From Candidatus Omnitrophota bacterium (GTDB taxonomy: Bacteria; CAIJMQ01), in NCBI GenBank assembly GCA_018812925.1, contig JAHJCU010000004.1, forward strand, positions 101,621-165,620: a stretch of DNA of 64,000 nt, read 5' to 3'. The position numbers and the translations under genes were made by a program. This document shows positions 4,460 through 61,947 of the stretch, piece by piece; position 1 is the stretch's first letter; each line of letters starts with the position of its first letter. The notes beneath the pieces were generated by a model. It searched no databases, had not been told where the DNA came from, and saw nothing but the letters and a program-made list of their open reading frames with translations.

Positions 4460-5464
4460 TTACGGATAAAATAGTATTTTGCAGGAATTTTTTGCTTCTA
4501 CGGCAAGTTTCAAGCCCTTCTGGAAATCTTTCAACGACAGACGGTGGCTGATAATAGAGGTTGCATCTTTTAACTTACCACTTACAAACATATCAAAGAC
4601 CTCTTTCTGTTCTATCGGTGTGGACGAATAAGTTCCTAAAATCAGCGTCTCGTGGTATATGAGATTCGGGTCAAGCTGAACCCTGGTATTATCGGGCACT
4701 TGCGCAAATATACTTAGTTTACCCCCTACTCTGACCATATCTAAAGCTTCCTCAACAGCTTCTTTATTACCTACACTGACGATAACTATATCGGATTCTT
4801 TAAATTTATCTATTTTTTTATTCTTTATATTGATAACATCTTCCGCACCTAATTTTTCAGCAAATTCAAGTCTTGAATCTACCACATCAACCAAACGGAT
4901 GCTCTTTACTCCCATTGTTTTTAAAAGAATAAGATGCATAATCCCTGAAGGGCCTGCCCCGATTATAGTCACTACATCTTTGGGTTCAATTTGTATTCTC
5001 TTAATATTTCTCCAAGCGCACGCAAAAGGTTCAATTAGAACTGCTTCTTCATCGCTTAAAGAATCCGGTAAGGGTATAACATTATTTTTTACCAACTCTT
5101 TGGGAACTTTTATAAATTCCGCAAAACCGCCGGGTTTGATATTTGTACTCTTGAAAAGCTCACACAAAGAAAAAGTGCCTTGCTTACAGTATTTACAGGA
5201 AAAACAGGGAGCATGATGGCTTACAAATACTCGCTCGCCAACTTTAAAACTGCCGACATTTCTACCCTGTTTTTCAATGGTTCCGACTACTTCATGGCCC
5301 AAAACAGAACCTGACTGAACCGATTCCTGTTGTATTTTGTAGATATCTGTTCCGCACAGACCGCATATCTTAACTTTTATAAGAAGTTCATCGTCCGTAA
5401 TTGTGGGAACGGGAATATCTTCATATTTGATATGGTAAGAAGAATAAAAAACTTGCGCTTTCAT
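4460..5464 (-). CDS. Zinc-dependent alcohol dehydrogenase family (MDR; threonine/sorbitol dehydrogenase-like)
   Basis: GHEVVGTIE zinc-ligand region, Cys cluster CFSCKYCK, Rossmann motif IIGAGPSG; stop overlaps the recJ start. Confidence 0.8.
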   Translation of the reverse strand: MKAQVFYSSYHIKYEDIPVPTITDDELLIKVKICGLCGTDIYKIQQESVQSGSVLGHEVVGTIEKQGRNVGSFKVGERVFVSHHAPCFSCKYCKQGTFSLCELFKSTNIKPGGFAEFIKVPKELVKNNVIPLPDSLSDEEAVLIEPFACAWRNIKRIQIEPKDVVTIIGAGPSGIMHLILLKTMGVKSIRLVDVVDSRLEFAEKLGAEDVINIKNKKIDKFKESDIVIVSVGNKEAVEEALDMVRVGGKLSIFAQVPDNTRVQLDPNLIYHETLILGTYSSTPIEQKEVFDMFVSGKLKDATSIISHRLSLKDFQKGLKLAVEAKNSCKILFYP

Positions 5465-7179
5465 TGAACATCCTCCATTTTAAGTATAACCGAATTTCTG
5501 TTTTCCCATCCATCAATTTGCGCTGTATAAGCCAAATCTATGATGTCCTGCTTGTTCAAAACATTTAAATAATCCGCTTTACCAAAACCGATAACTTCTC
5601 TATGAAATTTTTCATCTTTTACCCAGAATTTTATATGATTGGAACCGACTTTTTTAGGTTCGGTCATTATTTGAAGATTCTTGGTTATAAAAACCGGTTC
5701 TTCGTTGCTTAAACCAAAAGGAGAAAAAAGTTGAAATTCTTTTACTACCGAATCAGTAAGAATATCCAAAGACATATAAGCATCCGCTACTAACAACGAA
5801 GTGAATTCCTCAATAGGTAACTCTTCGGCTAAGCTATTTATCTTGTTTCTAAATGGCTCTATATTATCCTGCGCAATCTCCAATCCGCAGGCGTGTTTAT
5901 GTCCGCCGAAAGTTACAAGCAATTCTTTTACTTTTCCCAAATTTTCGAATAAATTAAAATCACCTATACTGCGTCCGGAGCCCCTGCCAATACCGTTATT
6001 CAAAGAAATCAAAATCGCGGGTTTAGAGAATTTATCCACAAGACGCGACGCAACTATACCAATTACTCCCGGATGCCATCCTTCATTGGCAAGGACAAGA
6101 ATTCTATTTTCACGGAAATTGACATTTTCTTCCGCCATCTTCATAGCTTCCTGACAAATTTCTTCTTGTATTTTCTGTCTTTGTTTATTATCCGCTTCCA
6201 ATAAAGAAGCAATCTCCAAAGCTTCTTGTTCACACTGGCTCAAAAGCATCTTAACGCATTTATCGGCAGTATCAATCCTTCCACCTGCATTTAAACGCGG
6301 ACCCAAAATAAAACCGATATCGCGCGTCGTAATATTTTTGTTATTAATTTTGGCAGTGTTTTTTAAAGCATTTATGCCAACTTTTTTAGAAGAATCGAGT
6401 TTACTTAAACCATATTTAACTAATATCCTGTTTTCTCCTATAAGCGGAACCACATCACTTACAGTCCCAAGAGCAACTAAGTCAAGATGTTCTTCGAGGA
6501 AATCAAGTTCTTCCCGCCTGCTTGTCCCGATGTTACGTCGGGGCGAGCAGGTTTTCTCCTGCAACACTTGAGCGAACTTAAATACGACCCCAACGCCTGC
6601 GAGTTCTTTAAAAGGATAAGAACAAACTTTTGGGTTTATAACAGCTAATGCCGGAGGGATATGAACGCCTGCTTTATGATGGTCAACAATTATCGTATCT
6701 ATACCTTTTTGTTTGGCTAACAATATTTCTTCGGAACCGTCCATACCGCAATCACATGTGATTATTAATTTTACATTTTCCTTTTCTGCTTGTTTTATGG
6801 CTGTCATGTTTAGACCATAACCATCCTTAACTCTATGCGGCATATAATAAGAAGCATTTGCTCCAAGCTGTTTTAACGTAAGAAGCATAAGACATATTGA
6901 CGTTATTCCATCAACATCGTAATCCCCATAAACAAGAATTTTCTCGTCGTTTTCAATAGCCTGAAAAACTCTGGCAGAGGCTTCCCCAATCCCATTCAAA
7001 AGATACGGAGAATGAAGATCAGACAAGTTGCCGTTTAAAAATGCTTGCGCTTCCTTGGGCGTTTTACTGCCGCGATTTATCAACAGTTGCGCAGTACACG
7101 GAGAAATTCCTAAAACATTAGAAATTTGACCCGAAAGAAACGGTTCAAGTTTTTTTACTTTCCAGCGTTTCGGTTGCAT
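5461..7179 (-). CDS. recJ: Single-stranded-DNA-specific exonuclease RecJ
   Basis: DHH motifs (YGDYDVDGITS, DHH), DHHA1 region, 572 aa. Confidence 0.85.
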   Translation of the reverse strand: MQPKRWKVKKLEPFLSGQISNVLGISPCTAQLLINRGSKTPKEAQAFLNGNLSDLHSPYLLNGIGEASARVFQAIENDEKILVYGDYDVDGITSICLMLLTLKQLGANASYYMPHRVKDGYGLNMTAIKQAEKENVKLIITCDCGMDGSEEILLAKQKGIDTIIVDHHKAGVHIPPALAVINPKVCSYPFKELAGVGVVFKFAQVLQEKTCSPRRNIGTSRREELDFLEEHLDLVALGTVSDVVPLIGENRILVKYGLSKLDSSKKVGINALKNTAKINNKNITTRDIGFILGPRLNAGGRIDTADKCVKMLLSQCEQEALEIASLLEADNKQRQKIQEEICQEAMKMAEENVNFRENRILVLANEGWHPGVIGIVASRLVDKFSKPAILISLNNGIGRGSGRSIGDFNLFENLGKVKELLVTFGGHKHACGLEIAQDNIEPFRNKINSLAEELPIEEFTSLLVADAYMSLDILTDSVVKEFQLFSPFGLSNEEPVFITKNLQIMTEPKKVGSNHIKFWVKDEKFHREVIGFGKADYLNVLNKQDIIDLAYTAQIDGWENRNSVILKMEDVQ

Positions 7180-7285: not shown

Positions 7286-8153
7286 TATTTTGAATCTTAA
7301 TTTTTGTTATAAAATCTGCCAATAACCCGACTTCTTCCAAAGAAAGCGTTTCCCCCCGTCTTGTTAAATCAATTGGAGATTTCTTGTAAAATTCCAATGG
7401 AAGATTTAAGAATTTGAGAGTGTTCTTAAGATTTTTCCTTCTCATTCTAAACATTGCGTCTGCTATTTTGAAGAAAAGTTCCTCGTCACAAACTTTTACT
7501 CTTGGGCTTTTTAGAGGTTTAAATAAAACAATAGCCGAATCCACATTAGGTGACGGGAAAAACACCCTTCTTGAAACTTTATGAATTATTTCAATGCCCA
7601 TATGAAATTGTGCCTTTATACTTAAAAAAGAATAATTTTCACTGCCGGGACACGCAACGAGACGTTGTGCAAACTCTTTCTGAAGCATAAGCACGATGCA
7701 TGAGAATTTCTTCTTAAAAGAAATCAATTTAAATAGAATCGGAGAAGCTATGCTGTAAGGCGGGTTTGAAACTACTTTCCATTCAGGAGATTCTCTTAGA
7801 ATAATTTCCAGGTCAATTTTTAGGATATCATCATTGATAACTTTCACATTGGGATAGGAAACAGCGGCAAGCTCTTTTAAAGAAGAAGCAGCCCCCCTAT
7901 CCTTTTCTATAGCAAACACTTCAGCGCCTTCGCAAGCCAAAGCAAAAGTAAGCGTCCCTATTCCTGAACCTATCTCAAGAACTTTTTCTCCCTCTTTTAT
8001 TTTTGCGGTTTCAACTATCTTCTTAAGGATATTTTTATCAACCAAAAAATGTTGACCCAGAAATTTTCTGGGACTAAGCCCTCTTTCTATCAAAAGATTT
8101 TTGACTTGAGTAGGCGTAGCCAAATCCAAATCAGGTTTATGTAAATTAGCCAT
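7266..8153 (-). CDS. rsmA: 16S rRNA (adenine1518/1519-N6)-dimethyltransferase
   Basis: FLGQHFLVD and VLEIGSGIGTLT SAM-binding motifs, NPPY-like catalytic motif (SNPPYSI). Confidence 0.85.
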   Translation of the reverse strand: MANLHKPDLDLATPTQVKNLLIERGLSPRKFLGQHFLVDKNILKKIVETAKIKEGEKVLEIGSGIGTLTFALACEGAEVFAIEKDRGAASSLKELAAVSYPNVKVINDDILKIDLEIILRESPEWKVVSNPPYSIASPILFKLISFKKKFSCIVLMLQKEFAQRLVACPGSENYSFLSIKAQFHMGIEIIHKVSRRVFFPSPNVDSAIVLFKPLKSPRVKVCDEELFFKIADAMFRMRRKNLKNTLKFLNLPLEFYKKSPIDLTRRGETLSLEEVGLLADFITKIKIQNRHKGTK

Positions 8154-10469: not shown

Positions 10470-11546
10470 ATTACTAAATTACATGAACTAAAAAAAGCTG
10501 GGCAGTCTGCGTGGTATGACAATATTACAAGACAACTTCTTCTTTCAGGAGAGCTGGATAAACTTATATCTAGCGGTATTTTGGGGTTAACTTCAAATCC
10601 CACTATTTTTCAAAAAGCTTTAACATCTCCGGCATACAAAAAACAATTGGATGAATTAAAATCCAAAAAAATTAGCGTAATTGAGGCGTATGAAAAATTA
10701 GTTTTCAAAGATATATTGGATGCGGCAAAATGTTTTGATGGTGTTTATAAGACAAGTAACGGCGAAGATGGATATGTAAGCATTGAGGTGTCTCCGCAAT
10801 ATGCCTATGACACTCTTAAGACAATAGAAGAAGCAAAACGAACTTTTACGGTTTTGGACAGACCCAACATAATGATAAAGATTCCTGCTACTAAGGAGGG
10901 GATTCCGGCAATAAAAGAAGTTATTGCTTCGGGTATAAATGTAAACGCAACATTGATATTCTCCGTAGAACAATACGAAAAAACGGCTAATGCGTATATA
11001 GAAGGTCTCCAGAAACGCGCATCGGAAGGTAGGGATTTATCAAATATTCATTCTGTAGCAAGCGTATTTATATCCAGAGTTGATACTGATATTGATAAGG
11101 GTTTAGATGCAAAAGGAAATACAGCACTAAGAGGGCTTGCGGCTGTCGCTAATGCAAAGGTAATTTATGCAAAATTCAAAGAAATTTTTTACAGCGAAAG
11201 ATTCGAGAAACTAAAGAAGAAAGGCGCAAATATGCAAAGACCGCTTTGGGCTTCTACTTCTTCTAAAGACCCTGCTTATTCAAAAGTTAAATATGTTGAA
11301 GAATTAATAGGTTCCGAAACGGTAAATACTATGCCTGAAGAAACGGTTAAGACTTTCCTTCAATCCGGCAATATTAAAGTTGTTGTGGAAGAAAACTTAG
11401 AAGATGCAAAAAAAATAATTAAGAGTTTAAATGAGGAAGGTATAAATATCGATTTAGTGTGCAAAAAACTACAAGCTGAAGGAGTCAAGAAATTTGTTGA
11501 ATCATTTGAATTGCTTTTAGATTCAATCTCTAAAAATATTTTATAG
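10470..11546 (+). CDS. tal: Transaldolase; N-terminus extends upstream of the track start, start codon uncertain (possibly ATT at 10470)
   Basis: Conserved motifs GQSAWYDNITRQLL and LGLTSNPTIF; the first lies upstream of TTG 10581 in a frame open to 10443 that has no ATG/GTG/TTG. Confidence 0.7.
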   Translation: MTKLHELKKAGQSAWYDNITRQLLLSGELDKLISSGILGLTSNPTIFQKALTSPAYKKQLDELKSKKISVIEAYEKLVFKDILDAAKCFDGVYKTSNGEDGYVSIEVSPQYAYDTLKTIEEAKRTFTVLDRPNIMIKIPATKEGIPAIKEVIASGINVNATLIFSVEQYEKTANAYIEGLQKRASEGRDLSNIHSVASVFISRVDTDIDKGLDAKGNTALRGLAAVANAKVIYAKFKEIFYSERFEKLKKKGANMQRPLWASTSSKDPAYSKVKYVEELIGSETVNTMPEETVKTFLQSGNIKVVVEENLEDAKKIIKSLNEEGINIDLVCKKLQAEGVKKFVESFELLLDSISKNIL

Positions 11547-47369: not shown

Positions 47370-47924
47370 TTATTCAGGAATGAACACTGCCGCAGAAATC
47401 ACCGTAGTCCATAGGCCGTCTTTATTAGCTTCAGCAGATTGGCAGATATGCGTTGTTTTGAATATGTGTCCGCTTGCTTTATATATCTGTTCTCTTTCTT
47501 CCCACGCTTTATCGGAATCAAAAGGAATACCCAGAGTTGTCGCTAACATTGTAGCAGCCAAATCTTCTGCGTAATCGCCCGTTTTTTGCGCTATTGTTCC
47601 AAACGCATGATGTTCGGACAAATACCCGTAACTTTCATCGCCTTTTGGTATGGCAACGCCGATTGCGGCAGAAACCAACCTATTGGGTTCGTTTGTTTCG
47701 TTTTTTGCCATCACGCAATATGTTATCTGTCCCGGTTTTAGAAACGACAAACCTTCATCTTTCGATATCATTTTACAATTGGGCGGTAAGATGCTTGATA
47801 CATAAACAAGATTGAACTTTTCTATTCCCGCATTTCTTAAAGAAAGCTCAAACGATGCTAATTTATCTTTATGAATTCCTACTCCTTTAGTCAAAAACAC
47901 TTTCGCTGGCACCACAATACTCAT
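47370..47924 (-). CDS. pdaD: Pyruvoyl-dependent arginine decarboxylase
   Basis: 184 aa; PdaD-type N-terminus with FLTKGVG and the YVSSILPP self-cleavage region. Confidence 0.8.
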
Positions 47925-48036
47925 TTTTTACAATCTCCTTTCAAGTATTACTTTTCACAATCGTTATTAATTTTATTTCCTAATTACATTTATAACTAAT
48001 CTATTGCCAGATTGCAAGTTTTCTGAAAAATATTTT

Positions 48037-48081
48037 AATTGTCACGACTGCCCGCTTCGCAAGCATGCGGGCGTGACAATT
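48037..48081. repeat. GC-rich palindromic element, copy A
   Basis: AATTGTCACG-ACTGCCCGCTTCGCAAGCATGCGGGCG-TGACAATT; the inner 26-nt core matches the reverse complement of 54087-54114 at 25 of 26 positions. Confidence 0.55.
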
Positions 48082-48178
48082 ATCCCGCAGAGTATCGGAA
48101 AAATATCAAACCCTCTGGAATTTGAAAAATTGCGAGGACCAAAGTCCCGAATTTCTCAGAAGAAATTTTTCCGATGTC

Positions 48179-48814
48179 TTACGTTGCGGGATTAATCAAC
48201 TTGTTAAAAATTTCTGCGCTTAAATTATTATAATTATCTATGACAATATCTGCACTTTTTAGAAAATCTCTTTTATGAGTAGAGCTTACTCCAATACACT
48301 TCATCCCTGCTTTCTTTGCTCCTTCAACTCCAACCGGAGCATCTTCTACAACAATGCATCCGGAGGGCGAAACGCCTAATTTTTTACTTGCAAGAAGAAA
48401 AATGTCGGGATGGGGTTTACTGTGCTGAACTTGATTGCCATATACAAGAGCCGAGAAAAATTCTTTTAATCCGCATTCTTCGGTTATGAGTCCTACGTTC
48501 TCCGGAGTACCGCTACTTGCCACAGCCATTTTAAACCCATCTGCTTTTAGCAAGTTCAATAAGTCAATCAAACCATCAAAGGGTTTTATATACCCCTTTG
48601 CAAATTTGCGAAAAAGAATTCCTTTTTCATCGCTTATCTTTATAATTTCTTCCTTAGTATAACTGCCTCTAATAACCATGGGGATAATTTTGTCATCTCT
48701 CATACCAAAGAAATGAGTAAACTCTTCCCAGGAAAGGTTCACACCTCTTGCTTTAAAGATTTGTTCCCACGCACGATAATGAAACTGGGATGTATCGGCT
48801 AAAACACCATCCAT
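48179..48814 (-). CDS. HAD family hydrolase (beta-phosphoglucomutase-like)
   Basis: N-terminal DGVLADT motif I and the remaining HAD motifs. Confidence 0.75.
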   Translation of the reverse strand: MDGVLADTSQFHYRAWEQIFKARGVNLSWEEFTHFFGMRDDKIIPMVIRGSYTKEEIIKISDEKGILFRKFAKGYIKPFDGLIDLLNLLKADGFKMAVASSGTPENVGLITEECGLKEFFSALVYGNQVQHSKPHPDIFLLASKKLGVSPSGCIVVEDAPVGVEGAKKAGMKCIGVSSTHKRDFLKSADIVIDNYNNLSAEIFNKLINPAT

Positions 48815-48839
48815 ATCCCAGATTACACCTTTAGATATT

Positions 48840-49310
48840 TTATATCCAATAGGGAAAGCAATTACTTGTCACAATCGTCCAAGTAACCATATACGTTAAT
48901 GCCCACAATCCCAGAATTGCGCCTACAGTAAGAAGTAACAACTCGAATAAAAATTCTCCTGACTTGGATAATAGTTGCAACGTTTTTAGGAGTGACCTGA
49001 ATGAAAAAACACTAATCACACCAATTACAAGAAGGAATATAGAAAAGATGATAGAAAGGTAGTCATAGGGTAAACCATAGATAATTGAAATAATAAGGAT
49101 AAATCCAGCTAACCCCGCGAAAAAACAAACAACAGGCGATACCAACATTCCAAACCAAGCCAAGATAAACAGAGGTAATGCTGCAATAAAAACTAAAATA
49201 TAAATCTTTTTTCTCTTACTCTGAAGTAGAAACAGGTTCAAAATATCTACAAGAAGTGACCTGATGTGTATATTTTTACTAAAGATTCGCATTTCGTTTA
49301 ACCTTTGCAT
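48840..49310 (-). CDS. Hypothetical membrane protein
   Basis: 156 aa with four predicted TM helices. Confidence 0.35.
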   Translation of the reverse strand: MQRLNEMRIFSKNIHIRSLLVDILNLFLLQSKRKKIYILVFIAALPLFILAWFGMLVSPVVCFFAGLAGFILIISIIYGLPYDYLSIIFSIFLLVIGVISVFSFRSLLKTLQLLSKSGEFLFELLLLTVGAILGLWALTYMVTWTIVTSNCFPYWI

Positions 49311-49481
49311 GTTATTGCTATCTTCCTTCCAACTCTACCTTCATTTTCTCCAAAGGCAAATTTAATTATAGAAGTAAAAACCTTAATATGTCAAAATCTC
49401 ATACGCAAAATTATTTGACAGAAAAACAGATATTATGTAAAACTACCGTCTTTCGTATAAATTAAAACCTTAAAGAAAATC

Positions 49482-50918
49482 ATGAAAATCATTCGTTGGT
49501 TAATTAATCGGTGGCGCTGTGAAAACGGTTATCGCGATATTTTAGTAGTTGCCATTCCGCTAATATTAAGCACTAGCGCCTGGGCTGTCCAGCATTTCGT
49601 TGACAGAATGTTTCTTACCTGGTATTCGCCCGAAGCAATAGCAGCGGCAATGCCTGCGGGTATGCTTAATTTCACAGTAATGAGTTTGTTTATAGGCACT
49701 GCAAGTTATGCAGGCACTTTTGTCGCGCAATATTACGGCGCAGGAATATATAAAAAAATAGGCCCTTCCGTATGGCAGGGAGCATATATTGCGGTTGTAG
49801 GCGGAATAATTCACCTTTTCCTTATTCCTTTGGCGCGTCCCGTATTCGCTTTTATCGGGCACGACCCCTTAGTCCAAACTAACGAAATAATTTATTTTCA
49901 GGTATTATGTCTGGGAGCAGCGCCGGGTATTGCCGGAGCTGCTATGGCGGGCTTTTTCTCCGGACGCGGCAAAACATGGCCTATTATGTGGATAAACTGC
50001 TCCGCAACTTTTGTAAACTTAGTTCTCGACTATGCAATGATATTCGGCAACTGGGGATTTCCTGAAATGGGCATGAAAGGCGCGGCAATAGCAACAATTA
50101 TTTCCGGATACTTTGCTTTCTTTATATATCTTATTTTATTCTGCAAGCGTTCCTATAATGAAAAATATCATACCCTAAAAGGATTCCGTCTAAACCTAAA
50201 CCTATTTAAACGCCTTATGCATTTCGGTCTGCCCAGCGGAATACAATTTTCCTTAGATATGGTGGGGTTTAGCATATTTATACTTCTTGCAGGACGATTG
50301 GGAACGACAAACTTAGCCGCAACTAATATCGCTTTTAATATAAACACACTCGCTTTTATGCCCATGATTGGCATAGGCATAGCAATTTCCATTCTCGTGG
50401 GACAATCCCTCGGCAAAAATAGACCCGACCTTGCCGAACGAAGCACCTACTCCGGCTTTCATATGACAATAGTTTATACTACGATTATCGCTTTTTTCTA
50501 TATGGTAATGCCCGATATCTTTTTAAAACCATTTGCAGCGCAGGCAAATCCGGAAACTTTCGAATCAATCAGACAAATCGCGCGGGTACTTCTGAGGTTT
50601 GTAGCTATATATGCAATTTTTGATACACTTAATATTGTTTTTTCTTCGGCAATTAAAGGCGCGGGAGATACGCGTTTTGTCCTGAAAATGATTATAGTCT
50701 TATCATCATTATTGCTTGTTATTCCCTCTTATATTGCAGTGATAATTTTTCACAAAGGCGTCTATACCGCCTGGACTATTTTCACCTTCTACGTCATTGC
50801 TCTGGGTTTTGCATTCCTGCTGCGTTTTATACAGGGTAAATGGCGAACAATGCGCGTGATTGAAGAAGTCATCCCTGTTATTCCAACAATGATGTCAGAG
50901 ACACCATCGATGAAATAG
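49482..50918 (+). CDS. MATE family efflux transporter
   Basis: 478 aa, 12-TM organisation with MATE-type repeats. Confidence 0.8.
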   Translation: MKIIRWLINRWRCENGYRDILVVAIPLILSTSAWAVQHFVDRMFLTWYSPEAIAAAMPAGMLNFTVMSLFIGTASYAGTFVAQYYGAGIYKKIGPSVWQGAYIAVVGGIIHLFLIPLARPVFAFIGHDPLVQTNEIIYFQVLCLGAAPGIAGAAMAGFFSGRGKTWPIMWINCSATFVNLVLDYAMIFGNWGFPEMGMKGAAIATIISGYFAFFIYLILFCKRSYNEKYHTLKGFRLNLNLFKRLMHFGLPSGIQFSLDMVGFSIFILLAGRLGTTNLAATNIAFNINTLAFMPMIGIGIAISILVGQSLGKNRPDLAERSTYSGFHMTIVYTTIIAFFYMVMPDIFLKPFAAQANPETFESIRQIARVLLRFVAIYAIFDTLNIVFSSAIKGAGDTRFVLKMIIVLSSLLLVIPSYIAVIIFHKGVYTAWTIFTFYVIALGFAFLLRFIQGKWRTMRVIEEVIPVIPTMMSETPSMK

Positions 50919-50927
50919 AGTATTTGG

Positions 50928-50951
50928 AATTGTCATTGCGAGCGTGGCAAT
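50928..50951. repeat. Short palindrome with arms resembling those of element A (AATTGTCA...GTGGCAAT), lacking the full GC core
   Basis: aattgtcattgcgagcgtggcaat immediately after the MATE stop, between convergent genes. Confidence 0.3.
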
Positions 50952-51017
50952 CTCAAAGTTTACTTTTCTTTCGAATTTTTGTCGGACTTTTCTGGATTCT
51001 TTCCTGAACTTATAAAA

Positions 51018-51227
51018 TTAAAAGAAATCTTTTAAAATTTCTTTCGCTCTTTCGACTTGGTCTTTTTTTACCATAAGGCGTGTAGGAATGGCATATGCAC
51101 AATGCACAAAGTTTTCCCCCTGAAAAAAATAAGTTATATCGCAACTATCCAATATAGATTTTATTACAGCTATATCGCCTGGATTAGAAGTAGATAAAAC
51201 CGCTGTGTAATCAATGAATTCGGTCAA
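51018..51227 (-). CDS. Small DUF2007-like protein (putative signal-transducing protein)
   Basis: 69 aa; size and pattern fit; assignment tentative. Confidence 0.4.
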   Translation of the reverse strand: MTEFIDYTAVLSTSNPGDIAVIKSILDSCDITYFFQGENFVHCAYAIPTRLMVKKDQVERAKEILKDFF

Positions 51228-51246
51228 GGTATCCCCTTACTAATTG

Positions 51247-51804
51247 TTATTTCTGCTCTTTCAAAAATTCTAAAATCGGTTTCCCTGCGATATAGAGTTC
51301 CTCGACTACGGCATCACCGGATTTTACGCGGACCGTTATGTAGGCGTCCTGATTGCCTCTGACGTTGTGTCCTCTGTAAGCTCTTTCTGCGGCGGGAGCA
51401 AGTGTTTCTTCCATATAATACCGGTTAAACGGAAGAATTAGATTTGCTTCATTACGGCTACAATAGCTAACTCTTACTTGAATGTAATCATCTCCTACGG
51501 GACGTTCTATACTTAAACCGGCTATTTTTGCAAAGCCTTTGTCATCTTCTTTAATGAGGGCATAAACCTTTTGAAAATGCCTTAATTTAAGTCCTTCAGG
51601 TAAAGGGGTTTTATTTTCTTCTACGCCCAATGCAACATATCGTCCCCGAAACGCATCGTAGGGGTCTACAGGCTGGGTCTTGAAGCGGAATTGTTTTCCA
51701 TTATTAAGAATAGTTTCATAACGGATAATTGTTGAAATTGGTTTTACAAGCTGCAAGAGAGCCAAACAGAAAAACAATCCTAAAATATAAATAAATTTCT
51801 TCAT
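51247..51804 (-). CDS. Secreted protein, possibly GDYXXLXY family
   Basis: N-terminal signal/anchor; DPYDAFRGRY motif; stop overlaps the upstream membrane-protein gene. Confidence 0.4.
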   Translation of the reverse strand: MKKFIYILGLFFCLALLQLVKPISTIIRYETILNNGKQFRFKTQPVDPYDAFRGRYVALGVEENKTPLPEGLKLRHFQKVYALIKEDDKGFAKIAGLSIERPVGDDYIQVRVSYCSRNEANLILPFNRYYMEETLAPAAERAYRGHNVRGNQDAYITVRVKSGDAVVEELYIAGKPILEFLKEQK

Positions 51805-53090
51805 GTTTTATTCTTCCAACGGTTCATAAGCAGAAGATTTGTTAACAGGAAACCGATTCCGATGATTATAAAAGCTATCCCTCTGGTTATGAAGCTCATA
51901 TCGCTGTCAAAAAATCTTGCAACAACCAGCAGTATTAAAATGACGATGCCTAGATTTATAGTGCCAATATGTTCTTTTTTAACACCTTCAGCTATTGTAT
52001 TTATGCCTAAGGCTGATAGATACAAATTGAATAGGATAACAGGGAAAATAGTATTCGGATTAAATGAATATAAAGCGTGTCCTGCAAGTGTTACTAAAGG
52101 AAGAAAAGCGAACGATATTACTGCTGTCTTGTCCCGCCTGATAAATTCTACGAAAAGAACCAAAGCAATTAGAAAGAGAATTACTGCAAAAATATATTCG
52201 CCTTTAGCTTCGGCAAACTGAGGAAACTTCCAGTAAATTGTTTTCCATATATATCTATAGGTAAGAATATATGAAAGCGTGAAAGCGCCCAATAACCCCA
52301 CAATCTTGAATGGTTCTAACAGGTTTGTTTTAAATTTACCTACCCAAAGGACTCCTATGAGATACAAAATGGCAAAGAAGCTACCATATATTATCATCCA
52401 GTAAGTCGGCAATATATCTAATAGAGTAATGCCTATGGCTACGCAAAGACAGATAGAAATAATCAAACTAAAGAAATTGAAACGGATAAAATATGAATCT
52501 TTTTTTGCAATCTGCAAAAAATGGGGAATTATTAAAGCGGCGAGAGGCCAAAACAGTATGGCGTTTCCATCACCAAATTTCGCGCTGCCAGACCAAAAAG
52601 TAATTCCTATAATATAGAGCATTGCTGGGACGGTAGCCCGCATAAAATATACTAAAGGAAGTCCCAATAACATCCAGAATAATAAAAAGTGGGAGTCATA
52701 GAATGAGATATGGTATGTCTGTTCAATAAGTGCAGCTGAAGCACCTATCATAAGAAATAGAAAAGTTGCAGTCCCTTCTTTCCACGAATCGGATTCATTT
52801 CGCTTTAGTATTGTCCATCCGACAAGCAACTGTGCCAAAATCAAAGGGAGAAGAGAAAGAATAGTTCTTGCGGAACGGGAAAGTTCCTGCCAGTTGTGGG
52901 CTAAAAGGAGAATTATTCCTGACCCGATTAGTAAAGAACCCAAGAGACTGAATATTATTAGAGCAACTCTTGGTCCTTTTCTATCGCTATAGTATTGACG
53001 TAGTTTGTCGGCAGTTTCCGAAGATAATATACCCTTATCTACTAAAATAGGTATTTCTTTATAAAGCCACTGTATAGCTTTTCTGCTCAC
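51801..53090 (-). CDS. Polytopic membrane protein (DUF2157/DUF4401-like)
   Basis: Short soluble N-terminus followed by about 12 TM helices. Confidence 0.45.
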   Translation of the reverse strand: MSRKAIQWLYKEIPILVDKGILSSETADKLRQYYSDRKGPRVALIIFSLLGSLLIGSGIILLLAHNWQELSRSARTILSLLPLILAQLLVGWTILKRNESDSWKEGTATFLFLMIGASAALIEQTYHISFYDSHFLLFWMLLGLPLVYFMRATVPAMLYIIGITFWSGSAKFGDGNAILFWPLAALIIPHFLQIAKKDSYFIRFNFFSLIISICLCVAIGITLLDILPTYWMIIYGSFFAILYLIGVLWVGKFKTNLLEPFKIVGLLGAFTLSYILTYRYIWKTIYWKFPQFAEAKGEYIFAVILFLIALVLFVEFIRRDKTAVISFAFLPLVTLAGHALYSFNPNTIFPVILFNLYLSALGINTIAEGVKKEHIGTINLGIVILILLVVARFFDSDMSFITRGIAFIIIGIGFLLTNLLLMNRWKNKT

Positions 53091-53106
53091 ATTTACACTC
53101 CGTTTG

Positions 53107-53964
53107 TTACTTTACTACTTTTTGATTTAAAAATCCATGTATCATCTCTCTATATTTCTCTCTCAATATTACAGAATATCGTCCAATTTTACCGCGATTG
53201 ATTAATGCGTTCTCTATCTTAATTATCGACATTACTTCTATGAGAGAGGATGTTAGAAAAATTTCGTCGCAGGATTTTAGGAAGTCCACATCCACAAGTT
53301 TTTCTTCCACTTTTAAACCTACAGTAGGAGCCATCTGTAAAATTTTTGCCCTTGTTATGCCGGGCAGTATTCCTGAATCGCTTGGCGCAGTGATAAGTGT
53401 ATCACCACTTATCATAAAGATATTTCTTGTTGTGCCTTCAAGGACAAAACCGTCGGTACTTAAGAGTATTGCTTCATCCACGCCTTTCTCTTTTGCTTCT
53501 TTTTTTGCAAGTATATGAGGCAGGAATGAGAGTGTTTTGTGTGAGTTTATAGAAAGGGATGAATCAATTCTTATTGAAGATATTATTGCGGTATATCCTT
53601 TTTCATAGTCGCTTTCTTTGTAGCGGACTTCGTCTTTTACAATGACTATAAAATTAGCGTTTTTCTCTTCTTCATCTGTTTTGGTGAGATAGATATTAAC
53701 AAGCCCCTTGTTTATTGATGAATCGCTGATTAATTTTTTTATGATTTCGGCAACTTGTTCTAGATTAACAGATAATTTTAAATCAAGCGCCTTGGCGGAA
53801 TCCCTTAATCTCTCAAAATGCTCTTTCAGGAAAATAACTTTGCCTTCTTCTATGCATATTGTTTCAAATATGCCTTCGCCGTATCTGAAACCCCTATCTA
53901 AGATAGAGATTTTAGCATCCTGTAAAGACATGAAATCGCCATTGATATAAGCTAATCCTTTCAT
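53107..53964 (-). CDS. pabC: Class IV aminotransferase, probably aminodeoxychorismate lyase
   Basis: Fold-type IV PLP enzyme motifs; located in a pabB locus. Confidence 0.6.
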   Translation of the reverse strand: MKGLAYINGDFMSLQDAKISILDRGFRYGEGIFETICIEEGKVIFLKEHFERLRDSAKALDLKLSVNLEQVAEIIKKLISDSSINKGLVNIYLTKTDEEEKNANFIVIVKDEVRYKESDYEKGYTAIISSIRIDSSLSINSHKTLSFLPHILAKKEAKEKGVDEAILLSTDGFVLEGTTRNIFMISGDTLITAPSDSGILPGITRAKILQMAPTVGLKVEEKLVDVDFLKSCDEIFLTSSLIEVMSIIKIENALINRGKIGRYSVILREKYREMIHGFLNQKVVK

Positions 53965-53999
53965 AATTATCTTATCTAAGGGTTACGGCCCGTTTTTTC

Positions 54000-54051
54000 G
54001 TAATCAGTAATCTCAATATGTAATTCGTAACTAGTAAATGGTAAATAGTAA
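54000..54051. repeat. Tandem heptad array with GTAA at 7-nt periodicity (seven GTAA copies, one 13-nt gap)
   Basis: cGTAAtcaGTAAtctcaatatGTAAttcGTAActaGTAAatgGTAAataGTAA, in the region upstream of pabC. Confidence 0.55.
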
Positions 54052-54138
54052 TTAATCTAAACTAATTTTTAAAAAATTACGGATTACGCCCGCCTGCTTG
54101 CGAAGCGGGCAGGCTTTACGAGTTACTAATTACGAATT
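54022..54138. repeat. About 23-bp imperfect inverted repeats (20 of 23) flanking GC-rich core copy B; MITE-like or composite structured element
   Basis: AATTCGTAACTAGTAAATGGTAA (54022-54044) against the reverse complement of 54116-54138 (AATTCGTAATTAGTAACTCGTAA). Confidence 0.35.
54071..54114 (-). terminator. GC-rich hairpin (core copy B) with a downstream U-tract; candidate terminator of the RNA-binding-protein gene
   Basis: Minus strand GCCCGC-N11-GCGGGC stem then CGUAAUCCGUAAUUUUUU; the 10-nt gap before the U-run is atypical. Confidence 0.35.
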
Positions 54139-54141
54139 TTA

Positions 54142-54522
54142 TTAATATCCTCTATCTCTTGTTCCTCTGGTTCTTCTATTGTCTCTTTTTTGTCCGCCTC
54201 GTTTGGAATTATAGCCGCCATGTCCACCCGAACCGAAACCGCCTCCTGGTGAGCTGAAACCGCCGCGTGAGGGACCAAAACTTCTTGGTTTGGGAGGACG
54301 AGCTTCATCAATTCTCAATTTGCGTCCTTCAAATTCGCTTTCACTTAATTCTGTTTTTGCTTTTCCGGCTGCTTCCGGAGTAGCCATTTCAATAAATGCA
54401 AAACCTTTGCCTTGGATTAGGTCAACTTTTACAACTTCGCCATACTTAGTGAATAATTCTTTTAACTGTTCACTGGTTACCGCATAATTGAGATTTCCTA
54501 CATACAGCTTGCTACCTTGCAT
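54142..54522 (-). CDS. RRM-type RNA-binding protein with a glycine-rich RGG tail
   Basis: RNP2 LYVGNL and RNP1 KGFAFIEM motifs; C-terminal RGGFSSPGGGFGSGGHGG. Confidence 0.85.
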   Translation of the reverse strand: MQGSKLYVGNLNYAVTSEQLKELFTKYGEVVKVDLIQGKGFAFIEMATPEAAGKAKTELSESEFEGRKLRIDEARPPKPRSFGPSRGGFSSPGGGFGSGGHGGYNSKRGGQKRDNRRTRGTRDRGY

Positions 54523-59771: not shown

Positions 59772-59808
59772 ATAAGTGAAAACTAGAGAACAAACAAAGG
59801 AGGAGAAA

Positions 59809-61947
59809 ATGAAAACGAAAATATTTATATCGGTAATAGTATTGTTTCTATGCTTAGTTTTTGGATTAAAAGATGTGTTCGCAGACGGATTGATAATAGT
59901 TGACCCGCCAGGCGGTTTGCACCGCCCCCACCCAAAACCAGAGGCTTTATCCGTAAAATATCATAGAGTGCAGGTTAATATAGAAAACGGCATTGCTACC
60001 ACATCAATCGACCAAGTATTCATAAATAATTACGACGTGGATTTAGAAGGGACATATATATTCCCTCTACCTGAAGACGCTGCCATTTCGAACTTCACAA
60101 TGTATGTTGATGGCAAAAAAATGAAGGGCGAAATTCTAGATAAGGATAAAGCAAGACAGATTTATGAAGATATAGTAAGAAGGATGAAGGATCCGGCACT
60201 TTTAGAATATGTTGGAAGAAATATGTTTAAGATGCGAGTTTATCCGATACCTAAACGCGGAGAAAAAAGAATCGAATTGGTTTATCAGGAAACTTTAAAA
60301 TACGATGCAGGTATTTACAAGTATATATATCCGCTTAATACAGAAAAATTTTCTCCAAAACCATTAGAAGAAGTCACAATATCTGCAAATATAAAGTCAA
60401 AAATTCCTGTGAAAAACGTTTATTCACCGAGTCATGAAGTAGATATAAAAATTGAAGAATTTGAAGCAACTTGTGGATATGAAGCTGAAGATGTAAAGCC
60501 CGATAAAGACTTTGTTCTTTACTACACTGTATCGGAAAAGGATGTGGGATTAAATCTGCTTTGTTACAGAACTGGAAGCGAGGATGGATATTTTATGATG
60601 CTTCTTTCCCCCGGAGAATTGAAAGAGAAAATTGCAAGTAATAAGGATATTATATTCGTATTAGATACATCCGGAAGCATGAGCGGAGAAAAGATAAAAC
60701 AGGCAAAAGAAGCTTTGAAGTTCTGCATAAATAGTTTAAGTAAAGGTGATAAGTTTAACATACTAAGTTTTGCGACTGGTGTAAATAAGTACAAAGATAG
60801 CTTGGTTTCTGTAAATAATAAAAGTATTAACGAAGCTTTAGATTTTATTGATAACCTTTCAGCGAGAGGAGGCACTGATATCAATGATGCTCTTTCATCA
60901 GCGCTGGCAATGATTACTGATTCACAAAAACCCAAGATGATTATTTTTCTTACAGATGGACAACCTACTGTAGGAGTTACCGATATGAAAACCATCTTAA
61001 AAAATCTTGAGGGTTCTAATACAGCTAACGCAAGAGTTTTTGTATTCGGCGTGGGTAATGATGTAAACACACACCTCTTAGATAGAATTTCCCAAACGCA
61101 TAGAGGTTTAACTGAGTATGTAGTTCCAAGAGAGAATATTGAGATTAAAGTATCTTCTTTTTATCGCAAAATAAGCGAGCCGATTTTAGCAAATATAAGC
61201 TTGGATTTTAGAAAAATCAAAACGAAAGAAATTTATCCTGTTACATTACCTGATATATTTAAGGGTACTCAACTTGTTCTTTTGGGAAGATACGATGGGA
61301 ATGGGCCAACAGCTATTAAATTAACAGGATACCTCAATGGTAAAAAGGAACAAATCATCTATGAAGGCAATTTCCCATCGGAGAATAAAGAGAACGATTT
61401 TATTCCAAGGATATGGGCAATGAGAAAGATTGGATATCTAATGAGTGAAATACGCTTGAGAGGCGATAATAAAGAACTTATTGATGAGATAGTTGCGCTT
61501 AGTAAAGAATACGGCGTAATGACGCAATATACATCGTTTTTAGTCCTGGAAAAGGATGAGGATTATAAACGGTGGGGAATACATTCTAATGAGGCATCGA
61601 AGATGATAAAAGAAGGGAAGTTGTCTGTGGATGCGATGAAACAAACAACCGGAGCAAGAAGTGTATCAAGCTCTATGGATATAAGTGATTTAAAAGGTCA
61701 GTTGGTTGTTGAGGCTCCGAGAAGGGCGACCATTAAACATATAGGAGCAAAAACCTTCTATCAGCAGGAAAACGGTTCTTGGTTGGATTCAAAATTTAGC
61801 AAAGGATTAAGTATAAAAGATATAAAATATCTTAGCAAAGAATACTTTGAGATTCTAAAAGAAAACCCTGAACTTGGTAAATATTTTGCGATAGGAGAAA
61901 AGGTTGTTGTTGTATTTGACGGAATTTGTTATCGTATAACTGAATAA
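59809..61947 (+). CDS. Secreted VIT domain and von Willebrand factor A domain protein
   Basis: Signal peptide after the ATG at 59809 (strong SD; track start GTG 59776 is less likely); vWA MIDAS motif DTSGSMSG; VIT-like N-terminal region. Confidence 0.8.
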   Translation: MKTKIFISVIVLFLCLVFGLKDVFADGLIIVDPPGGLHRPHPKPEALSVKYHRVQVNIENGIATTSIDQVFINNYDVDLEGTYIFPLPEDAAISNFTMYVDGKKMKGEILDKDKARQIYEDIVRRMKDPALLEYVGRNMFKMRVYPIPKRGEKRIELVYQETLKYDAGIYKYIYPLNTEKFSPKPLEEVTISANIKSKIPVKNVYSPSHEVDIKIEEFEATCGYEAEDVKPDKDFVLYYTVSEKDVGLNLLCYRTGSEDGYFMMLLSPGELKEKIASNKDIIFVLDTSGSMSGEKIKQAKEALKFCINSLSKGDKFNILSFATGVNKYKDSLVSVNNKSINEALDFIDNLSARGGTDINDALSSALAMITDSQKPKMIIFLTDGQPTVGVTDMKTILKNLEGSNTANARVFVFGVGNDVNTHLLDRISQTHRGLTEYVVPRENIEIKVSSFYRKISEPILANISLDFRKIKTKEIYPVTLPDIFKGTQLVLLGRYDGNGPTAIKLTGYLNGKKEQIIYEGNFPSENKENDFIPRIWAMRKIGYLMSEIRLRGDNKELIDEIVALSKEYGVMTQYTSFLVLEKDEDYKRWGIHSNEASKMIKEGKLSVDAMKQTTGARSVSSSMDISDLKGQLVVEAPRRATIKHIGAKTFYQQENGSWLDSKFSKGLSIKDIKYLSKEYFEILKENPELGKYFAIGEKVVVVFDGICYRITE

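Follow-up and report, generated by a model that had tools for sequence, protein, structure and literature searches.

The window, by which we mean the whole 64,000-nt stretch of DNA analysed here (35.6% GC), contains two short GC-rich hairpins, each in a spacer between genes on the minus strand. The first, copy A, lies in a 254-nt gap between a HAD hydrolase gene (48179–48814, −) and pdaD (47370–47924, −), 107 nt past the hydrolase stop codon and 122 nt ahead of the pdaD start. The second, copy B, lies in a 177-nt gap between the gene for an RRM RNA-binding protein (54142–54522, −) and a class IV aminotransferase gene (53107–53964, −), 28 nt past the stop codon of the former and 124 nt ahead of the latter. 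We found that the 26-mer CTGCCCGCTTCGCAAGCA[T/G]GCGGGCG matches exactly two places in the window, 48048–48073 on the plus strand and 54087–54112 on the minus strand. The two matches agree at 25 of 26 bases, with K (T/G) as the variable base, and no third match appeared in the window when three mismatches were tolerated. The pattern GCCCGC-N11-GCGGGC was confined to the same two sites, where the expected number in the window was 0, and both sites are among the eight 26-nt stretches of the window with at least 70% GC. Both copies fold into hairpins. Exact matching, the gene map, the pattern scan and folding thus bear out what the first-pass annotation had read from the letters: a reverse-complement agreement of 25 of 26 bases, an intergenic GCCCGC-N11-GCGGGC hairpin at both sites and, around copy A, perfect 10-bp arms within the 254-nt gap between the HAD hydrolase gene and pdaD. 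Its end coordinate for the second copy, 54114, was two bases too long; the true end is 54112.

The same annotation had held that two such copies are unlikely to arise by chance, and the 26-mer indeed had no match in any of 100 dinucleotide-preserving shuffles of the window. Short GC-rich matches do arise by chance in GC-rich genomes, and the matches that our scans returned from sequences of 60–74% GC are of this type, but nothing we found favours chance or an assembly artefact at the two window sites. Dozens more copies occur in contigs of equal base composition, which argues against chance, and both spacers are identical across independent ENA, NCBI and Logan assemblies, which argues against an artefact. 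We consider the probability that either explains the two-site match to be negligible. The Rfam 15 library gave zero matches in the whole window at gathering thresholds and, at E ≤ 1 over 47800–54300, nothing across either copy; a search of the window for tRNA and tmRNA genes also returned none.

The repeated unit proper is 25 nt long, CCCGCCTGCTTGCGAAGCGGGCAGG, and consists of two 9-nt arms and a 7-nt loop. Each strand folds as a 10-bp stem capped by a GCG triloop; the stem contains one C–A mismatch and one G–T wobble, which exchange places between the two strands. The arms are made of two overlapping CC(C/T)GC pentamers in swapped order, so that two further pairing registers are possible. Rare variants give these registers mixed support: those at L071:2538 and L088 carry compensatory changes that would preserve the register of the minimum-energy fold, and that at L072:476 carries one that would preserve the CCCGC/GCGGG register. 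The apex of the two commonest loop types reads GCGAAGC or GCGGAAGC, which is the consensus of an extraordinarily stable DNA mini-hairpin (PMC13037366). Such an apex would fit a single-stranded DNA intermediate.

Copy A (48047–48071, −) is a variant of this unit, CCCGCATGCTTGCGAAGCGGGCAGT, with two substitutions relative to the consensus (C6>A and G25>T) that leave just the CCCGC/GCGGG register paired. It caps a 45-nt hairpin (48037–48081, −; aattgtcacg/actgcccgcttcgcaagcatgcgggcg/tgacaatt), the outer stem of which is formed by the perfectly complementary 10-nt arms AATTGTCACG (48037–48046) and CGTGACAATT (48072–48081). As RNA, copy A together with this stem folds with −23.2 kcal/mol (z = −4.5). 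In a relative (L091; PdaD 91% identical), the outer stem is kept with a compensatory T–A>C–G change (AATCGTCACG/CGTGACGATT) and encloses an AT-rich apex of 35 nt without the core; the same stem-plus-apex module occurs at another locus, L051. The outer stem is older than the core, and copy A is best read as a decayed copy that replaced the 35-nt apex of an older conserved hairpin and not as a simple insertion.

The remainder of this spacer is also a mosaic. Adjoining copy A is a second hairpin module of about 110 nt (48082–48192, −), a dispersed repeat that overlaps the last codons of the HAD hydrolase gene and folds with −41.7 kcal/mol (z = −4.1). Its arms recur in L051, L008/L018 and L066, and a third module, nested in its apex, recurs in L069 and L065. 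Directly downstream of the copy A hairpin on the transcribed strand, we read a putative promoter, TTGCAA-17 nt-TTATAA (47990–48018, −), which may serve pdaD. A simple promoter scan did not call this element as such; the promoter-like block AACTTGCAATCT...ATTAGTTATAAATG is kept in L090, L091 and L088.

Copy B (54089–54113, +) is a canonical core, CCCGCCTGCTTGCGAAGCGGGCAGG, antisense to the gene for the RRM protein. Its host is a periodic palindromic composite of about 120–140 nt (53997–54138, unstranded), composed of heptad repeats of the GTAAT type and the inverted complement of these repeats; its 24-nt arms are at 54022–54045 and 54115–54138, and copy B lies within the right arm. The composite folds with −45.5 kcal/mol (z = −6.3). 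The same composite, about 110 nt long and with the core, is found at three other loci (L013, L065:7503 and L067:2012), and GTAAT composites that lack the core occur at L065:5053–5128 and L071:2464–2515, where the junction ATTACG-(C/A)TTTAC is uninterrupted. Contigs from three independent short-read assemblies of the window's population (L082, L083 and L087) end inside copy B, and other short-read contigs of this population start near copy A. The breaks in copy B are the usual signature of a repeat. Neither the core nor the copy B composite had a match among viral contigs and plasmids.

We scanned metagenome contigs with the pattern CCCGCNNGCTTGCGAAGCGGG, which requires 19 of the 25 bases to be exact and leaves the last four bases of the 25-mer outside the search. 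The scan returned 70 loci, about 46 of which have 36–46% GC and all read CCCGCCTGCTTGCGAAGCGGGCAGG. In 422 kb, there are 52 perfect copies, or about 45 distinct copies once duplicate assemblies are removed, all in low-GC contigs and with unrelated flanks. Because 19 bases were fixed in the scan, the invariance of the core is partly so by construction, and we do not take it as evidence of selection. The suggestion in the first-pass annotation of a REP-like family of GC-rich hairpin repeats was therefore well founded, and the count of copies and orientations that it had proposed places the core far beyond the two window sites, mostly between genes and in both orientations. A scan of one genome per species gave five matches: one is in a relative of 36.5% GC (L003), between two tRNA genes, and the other four are chance matches in genomes of 61–74% GC.

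The family is sparse. The window holds two to three copies, and the most on any one contig among the matches listed is five on 244 kb, two of which loci may overlap. The density is roughly one copy per 30–80 kb, far below that of typical REPs, and a DNA uptake sequence was rejected because of this density. Integron attC sites and CRISPR repeats were considered only: we noticed nothing like an attC core site at the ends, and the copies stand singly and not in arrays. Proteins encoded at L046, L051, L060 and L067 are identical to proteins of the accession series of the window's Omnitrophota MAG, which suggests that the window's genome has no fewer than five copies besides those in the window, four of them canonical and the fifth, in L051, with one mismatch. 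A further four loci of the same metagenome may raise this number. Judged by the names that NCBI assigns to identical proteins, the host is Candidatus Omnitrophota. L089, which comes from the metagenome richest in matches, is a syntenic relative with a PdaD that is 88% identical.

Comparison of filled and empty sites showed that the 25-nt unit is gained or lost as such. In five comparisons, the difference was 25 nt with no target-site duplication, and in four of these it was exact to the base; such exact pairs are few in number, and because a G stands on both sides, the insertion boundaries are ambiguous by 1 nt. The core is flanked as GGTAACGGTAACG-core-AAGCCCGTATCGGT at L011, L037 and L072 and as GGTAACGGTAAC(A/G)AAGCCCG-core-TATCGGT at L024, L058 and L061; the background GGTAACGGTAACGAAGCCCGTATCGGT holds the core at two positions 7 nt apart and yields the same sequence once 25 nt are taken out. 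In the RRM-aminotransferase spacer of L088, a GTTAAC-type palindrome corresponds to the L058b and L062 elements minus exactly 25 nt. A partial copy of the 5′ half of tRNA-Leu(tag) at L028 contains exactly 25 extra nt relative to intact tRNA-Leu genes (L028 and L066). The GTAAT-type palindromes, which contain the core at four loci (copy B in the window, L013, L065 and L067) and lack it at L065:5053 and L071, form a looser pair because their flanks have diverged. Periodic palindromes of the GAAATAC type hold the core at at least four different positions, and many of them lack it. Orthologous spacers in relatives, which the first-pass annotation had proposed to compare, are polymorphic for presence and absence: L021 and L025 (75–80% nucleotide identity) each carry the core, within a composite, in a spacer that is short and empty in the other.

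Direct-repeat similarity across the core was enriched (6.4 versus 4.3, p < 0.0002). This enrichment reflects residence in periodic repeats and not a fixed duplication, a possibility that we rejected: the direct repeats range in length from 7 to 14 nt and are part of the periodic sequences that host the core, and no duplication is seen in the exact pairs. The arrangement of copy A had suggested that the core always sits in a hairpin apex, an idea that also failed, as the complementarity of the flanks was 4.67 compared with 4.65 for mismatched flanks (p = 0.46) and a flanking stem of at least 9 bp was seen in only about 6 of 43 copies. We found no conserved target tetranucleotide beside the insertions; 5′ flanks end in CG, TG, TT, TC and others, and 3′ flanks begin with TAT, AAG, GTT or TTT.

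The arms CCCGCCTGC...GCGGGCAGG are shared by longer relatives; across the family, the arms are kept and the loops vary, from TTGCGAA and TGCGAA through CTTGCGGAA and CAAATTTTG to nested hairpins of up to 45 nt. One such relative lies in the window within recJ (5461–7179, −). It spans 39 nt (6513–6551, +; CCCGCCTGC-TTGTCCCGATGTTACGTCGGG-GCGAGCAGG) and adds 13 residues, TCSPRRNIGTSRR, in frame. These residues are present in the window and in one 96%-identical homologue only, and are missing in 16 homologues of up to 86% identity. In the DNA alignment of recJ, the 39 nt are filled in the window and in L092 and form an exact gap in L093, and an intergenic copy of the 39-nt type is found at L061:9633. 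The zinc alcohol dehydrogenase gene of L093 contains a 33-nt member (+11 residues) that the orthologues in the window and L092 do not have. The recJ gene of L092 carries a further GC-rich hairpin insert of 45 nt (+15 residues), with different arms and with TTCA on both sides, which is absent from the window and thus separates strains that are 96% identical. The lengths of 39, 33 and 45 nt are all divisible by three, which is what selection against frame-shifting insertions would be expected to leave. The first-pass annotation had not recorded the relative inside recJ, the larger repeat around each copy or the discrete nature of the 25-nt insertion. The 25-nt form itself was found in non-coding DNA only.

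We then considered where the copies lie relative to genes. Among 34 classifiable non-redundant copies, 23 are flanked by tandem genes, 7 by convergent and 4 by divergent ones, so that 30 of 34 are in tandem or convergent spacers. Most lie 10–100 nt after a stop codon, and the nearest stop codon is at a median distance of 59 nt. Orientation matched that of the upstream gene in 23 copies and opposed it in 12, a weak bias that is not significant (p = 0.09). A T-rich tract beside the hairpin was present in 7 of 43 copies, and a terminator scan called neither window copy, except for a weak 5-bp stem overlapping copy B. The hairpins are not general intrinsic terminators, because so few copies have the T-tract, and the terminator role that the first-pass annotation had offered among its readings is not supported for the family as a whole. 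The family is biased towards 3′ spacers but is no set of canonical intrinsic terminators.

One possible explanation for this distribution is that the hairpins are RNA elements selected by the host, as terminators or 3′-end stabilisers, and that function, not mobility, keeps the copies identical. The placement of most copies a short way past stop codons, where the spacers are tandem or convergent, would suit this explanation, as would the strong folding of GC-rich hairpins in an AT-rich genome, the location of copy A between the end of the HAD hydrolase gene and the pdaD promoter, the proximity of copy B to the preceding stop codon and the compensatory change in the copy A outer stem in L091. 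We nevertheless regard it as improbable. Besides the scarcity of T-rich tracts, the copies occur in both orientations, copy B being antisense to its upstream gene; four are in divergent spacers and one is in a tRNA fragment, and relatives lie within the coding sequences of recJ and the alcohol dehydrogenase gene. Moreover, an identical 25-mer at differing positions of one background is hard to obtain by convergent selection, and the orthologous spacers of close relatives lack the core. We find it similarly improbable that the unit is a site for a host DNA-binding protein, of a nucleoid-organising, gyrase/IHF-like or partition type, the recognition of which fixes the sequence. Consistent with such a site, the 25-mer is very uniform across copies and related genomes, its stem mismatch and wobble are conserved and each genome holds a low to moderate number of copies; proteins of these kinds are known to bind REP/BIME elements (PMC2817692). 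The uniformity, however, is partly an artefact of the exact-match scan, and the arms tolerate loops of 6 to 45 nt, so that the spacing of half-sites would change. Copies also come and go between close relatives and land inside genes, and we found no conserved genomic position or neighbouring gene.

What we observed is a discrete unit at many unrelated sites and in both orientations, with exact gain and loss without target duplication and with turnover between relatives and between strains. We consider it probable that each hairpin is a copy of a miniature non-autonomous insertion element of uncultured Candidatus Omnitrophota that moves in a REP- or IS200/IS605-like mode. In such a mode, an enzyme that recognises the hairpin arms would mobilise the unit in trans, and the mobile form would probably be a single-stranded DNA hairpin. 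The best precedent for the enzyme would be the HUH/Y1 transposases (IS200/IS605 TnpA and RAYT), the closest because they also leave no duplication. Selection would then filter the sites that survive: the frame-shifting 25-nt form would persist in non-coding DNA alone, chiefly in short 3′ spacers and in pre-existing palindromic repeats, and forms with lengths that are multiples of three would persist in protein loops. A copy within a transcript would add a stable GC hairpin to the 3′ UTR and, like REPs, may slow 3′ decay or read-through; this would be a side effect and not the reason why the copies are identical.

Our search for the enzyme covered part of this material. Of roughly 430 ORFs, 38 were scanned (20 proteins of the window and 18 of the other loci), and none had a transposase or HUH domain; ten small ORFs in the window had no transposase domain. 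No recurrent protein family lies beside the cores in about 420 kb of flanks, which are genome fragments only; all-against-all clustering of the 432 flanking ORFs gave generic families, such as two-component regulators and pilins. The genes located between two cores are housekeeping genes; their products are a poly(A) polymerase-family nucleotidyltransferase, an isocitrate/isopropylmalate dehydrogenase, a Yip1-domain protein and YajC. A search for a full-length element returned no arm pair enclosing 0.3–3 kb.

A bolder version of the insertion-element interpretation, which seems to us possible but doubtful, is that no smaller self-contained mobile DNA units than these have yet been seen in bacteria. 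They would be hairpins of 25–45 nt set by two 9-nt arms, which a novel Omnitrophota enzyme cuts or copies and then pastes without target duplication; they would land preferentially in periodic palindromic repeats, with occasional in-frame protein remodelling, and would constitute a new system and no offshoot of REP/RAYT or IS200/IS605.

Omnitrophota are abundant, uncultured and mostly very small bacteria. The clean insertion of a 25-nt unit at many sites tests the lower size limit of mobile elements, and the family points to a candidate enzyme that recognises hairpins. It also has practical consequences: short-read assemblies break at predictable places, intergenic spacers are inflated in otherwise compact genomes, and extra peptide segments in housekeeping proteins (RecJ and zinc alcohol dehydrogenase) affect MAG annotation and strain typing. 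Because the presence or absence of copies differs between strains that are 96% identical, the copies can be used as fine-scale population markers. If the unit were only a passive terminator-like hairpin, the finding would be an ordinary one.

Several known systems share some of these features. IS200/IS605 elements insert 3′ of a fixed 4–5-nt target and have distinct left-end and right-end hairpins. Miniature derivatives of this family, known as palindrome-associated transposable elements, resemble the Omnitrophota element in the lack of a target-site duplication, with exact gaps of 25, 33 and 39 nt and at most 1 nt of ambiguity here, and in having a hairpin in place of terminal inverted repeats; single-stranded hairpin chemistry would fit the GCGAAGC apex. 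By contrast, the Omnitrophota element is one 25-nt hairpin without a fixed flanking target, and no TnpA was found in the proteins scanned. The Rickettsia palindromic elements (RPEs) are about 100–150 bp long, AT-rich and alphaproteobacterial. They are likewise palindromic in-frame gene insertions that are tolerated as extra peptide, a likeness that here concerns the longer relatives only; the Omnitrophota units are 25–45 nt long and GC-rich, have no sequence similarity to RPEs and, in the canonical 25-nt form, are non-coding only. A MITE of the terminal-inverted-repeat type, moved by a DDE transposase, was rejected, given the exact filled and empty pairs without a fixed-length target-site duplication. 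Intrinsic terminators share the GC-rich stem-loop soon after a stop codon, but a U-tract directly after the stem is present in only 7 of 43 copies, and both orientations occur.

There is also a likeness to REP, BIME and REPIN sequences, which are short (20–40 nt), GC-rich imperfect palindromes mainly outside genes and often just 3′ of them. As in REPs, the palindrome is preserved around a non-complementary middle, the copies join other motifs in mosaic composites and assemblies break at them; the spacers of copies A and B are mosaics of small modules and are therefore comparable to BIMEs. The REP of Coxiella burnetii, GTAGGTTGGGCTGAGCTTGCGAAGCCCAAC (PMC2817692, Table 1), shares the 11-mer GCTTGCGAAGC with the Omnitrophota unit. 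REPs are defined, however, by features that include a GT(A/G)G head where the palindrome starts at its 5′ end (PMC2817692), whereas the Omnitrophota unit starts with CCCG (CCTG in the reverse complement) and the bases outside the 25-mer vary. The Omnitrophota copies are singletons without inverted doublets or alternating clusters, number tens per genome and not hundreds (>100), and have relatives that are inserted in frame within genes. We saw no rayt gene in the sequences analysed, and RAYT homologues have been reported in Proteobacteria only (Nunvar et al. 2010), whereas the host here belongs to Omnitrophota. Our literature search returned no description of this sequence or of repeat or mobile-element families in Omnitrophota. 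The family works like REP elements but is no member of them as REPs are defined (PMC2817692). By the literature searched, it is a REP-like selfish miniature mobile hairpin that is new to the phylum Omnitrophota, and it stands out by its size, by inserting cleanly, by being nested in periodic palindromes and by having relatives that insert in frame.

At window positions 6513–6551, recJ (5461–7179, minus strand) carries an in-frame insert of 39 nt, a hairpin whose arms are those of the dispersed 25-nt GC-rich core. It adds TCSPRRNIGTSRR to the window RecJ between QVLQEK and EELDF and is missing from all homologues at ≤86% identity. A second in-frame recJ insert, a 45-nt GC-rich hairpin (CCCTGCCCTTCC...GGAAGGGCGGGG) with TTCA on either side, was found at L092:4573–4617, in a 96%-identical strain (L-numbers denote other loci or contigs). 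Its absence from the window recJ indicates a strain-level insertion polymorphism. A 33-nt family member (CCTGCCCGC-TTCGATGCAAAGCAA-GCAGGCGGG) lies in frame at L093:12553–12585, in a zinc alcohol dehydrogenase gene orthologous to window 4460–5464. This insert adds KPARFDAKQAG to the protein, and the orthologues in the window and L092 are without it. Elsewhere in the window, the highest GC content of any short stretch (81%) was found at 59901–59934 (TGACCCGCCAGGCGGTTTGCACCGCCCCCACCCA), within the open reading frame at 59776–61947; its sequence is unrelated to the core.

The variant core designated copy A adjoins a hairpin of approximately 110 nt (window 48082–48192) that is itself a dispersed module, with further sites at L051:12090–12220 and L008:4470–4560. 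The arms of this module, ATCCCGCAACGTAAGACATCGGAAAAATTTC and GATATTTTTCCGATACTCTGCGGGAT, are conserved, and its apex varies from locus to locus. In the window, the apex contains another dispersed module, GGGACTTTGGTCCTCGCAATTTTTCAAATTCCAGAGGGTT, which recurs at L069:1261–1301 and L065:5212–5241, showing that modules are nested in modules. On the other side of copy A is pdaD (47370–47924), a bacterial gene whose closest named homologues (77–81% identity) are assigned by annotation to DPANN archaea (Pacearchaeota, Woesearchaeota and Nanoarchaeia) and Methanolinea. These archaeal annotations suggest either exchange between domains or mis-binned contigs.

Comparison with L028:1348–1432 and L066:637–720 shows that L028:1490–1620 holds a partial copy of the tRNA-Leu(tag) 5′ half, separated by approximately 110 nt from the intact gene; the 25-nt core lies in the D-arm region of this partial copy. 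Pilin-like genes with N_methyl/T2SSG domains form tandem arrays (L061:7678, 8187 and 8954; L035:10240–10284 and 11405–11449), and several of them have beside them a variant core, with CTTGCGGAA or TGCGAA as its loop, set in approximately 70 nt of conserved sequence, so element and gene have apparently been duplicated together.

Intergenic spacers also carry periodic palindromic elements of 80–140 nt, which fold into long bulged hairpins. Each consists of three to five tandem units of approximately 7 or 11 nt, a short centre and then the units inverted; the unit types are GAAATAC, GTTAAC, GGTAAC, GTAAT and TATCTAG. Such elements were found at window 53997–54138, L009:6498–6588 and 7811–7904, L039:5226–5307 and 11322–11403, L032:1232–1349, and L088:418–507 and 2607–2726. 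Most of them lack the GC-rich core, and their sequence type can differ between orthologous spacers of relatives. They appear to be a separate repeat class in Omnitrophota, more abundant than the core.

Assemblies of these Omnitrophota genomes are fragmented by the repeats. Among short-read contigs of the window's population, the 3′ ends of L082, L083 and L087 fall inside copy B, the canonical core, and the 5′ ends of L077 and L080 are near copy A. For many metagenome matches to the core, the nearest contig end is no more than approximately 350 nt away.

A REP published for Coxiella burnetii, GTAGGTTGGGCTGAGCTTGCGAAGCCCAAC (Table 1, PMC2817692), has the 11-mer GCTTGCGAAGC in common with the centre of the Omnitrophota core. 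This likeness in sequence may be fortuitous, or it may stem from convergence towards the GCGAAGC mini-hairpin or from a distant relationship.
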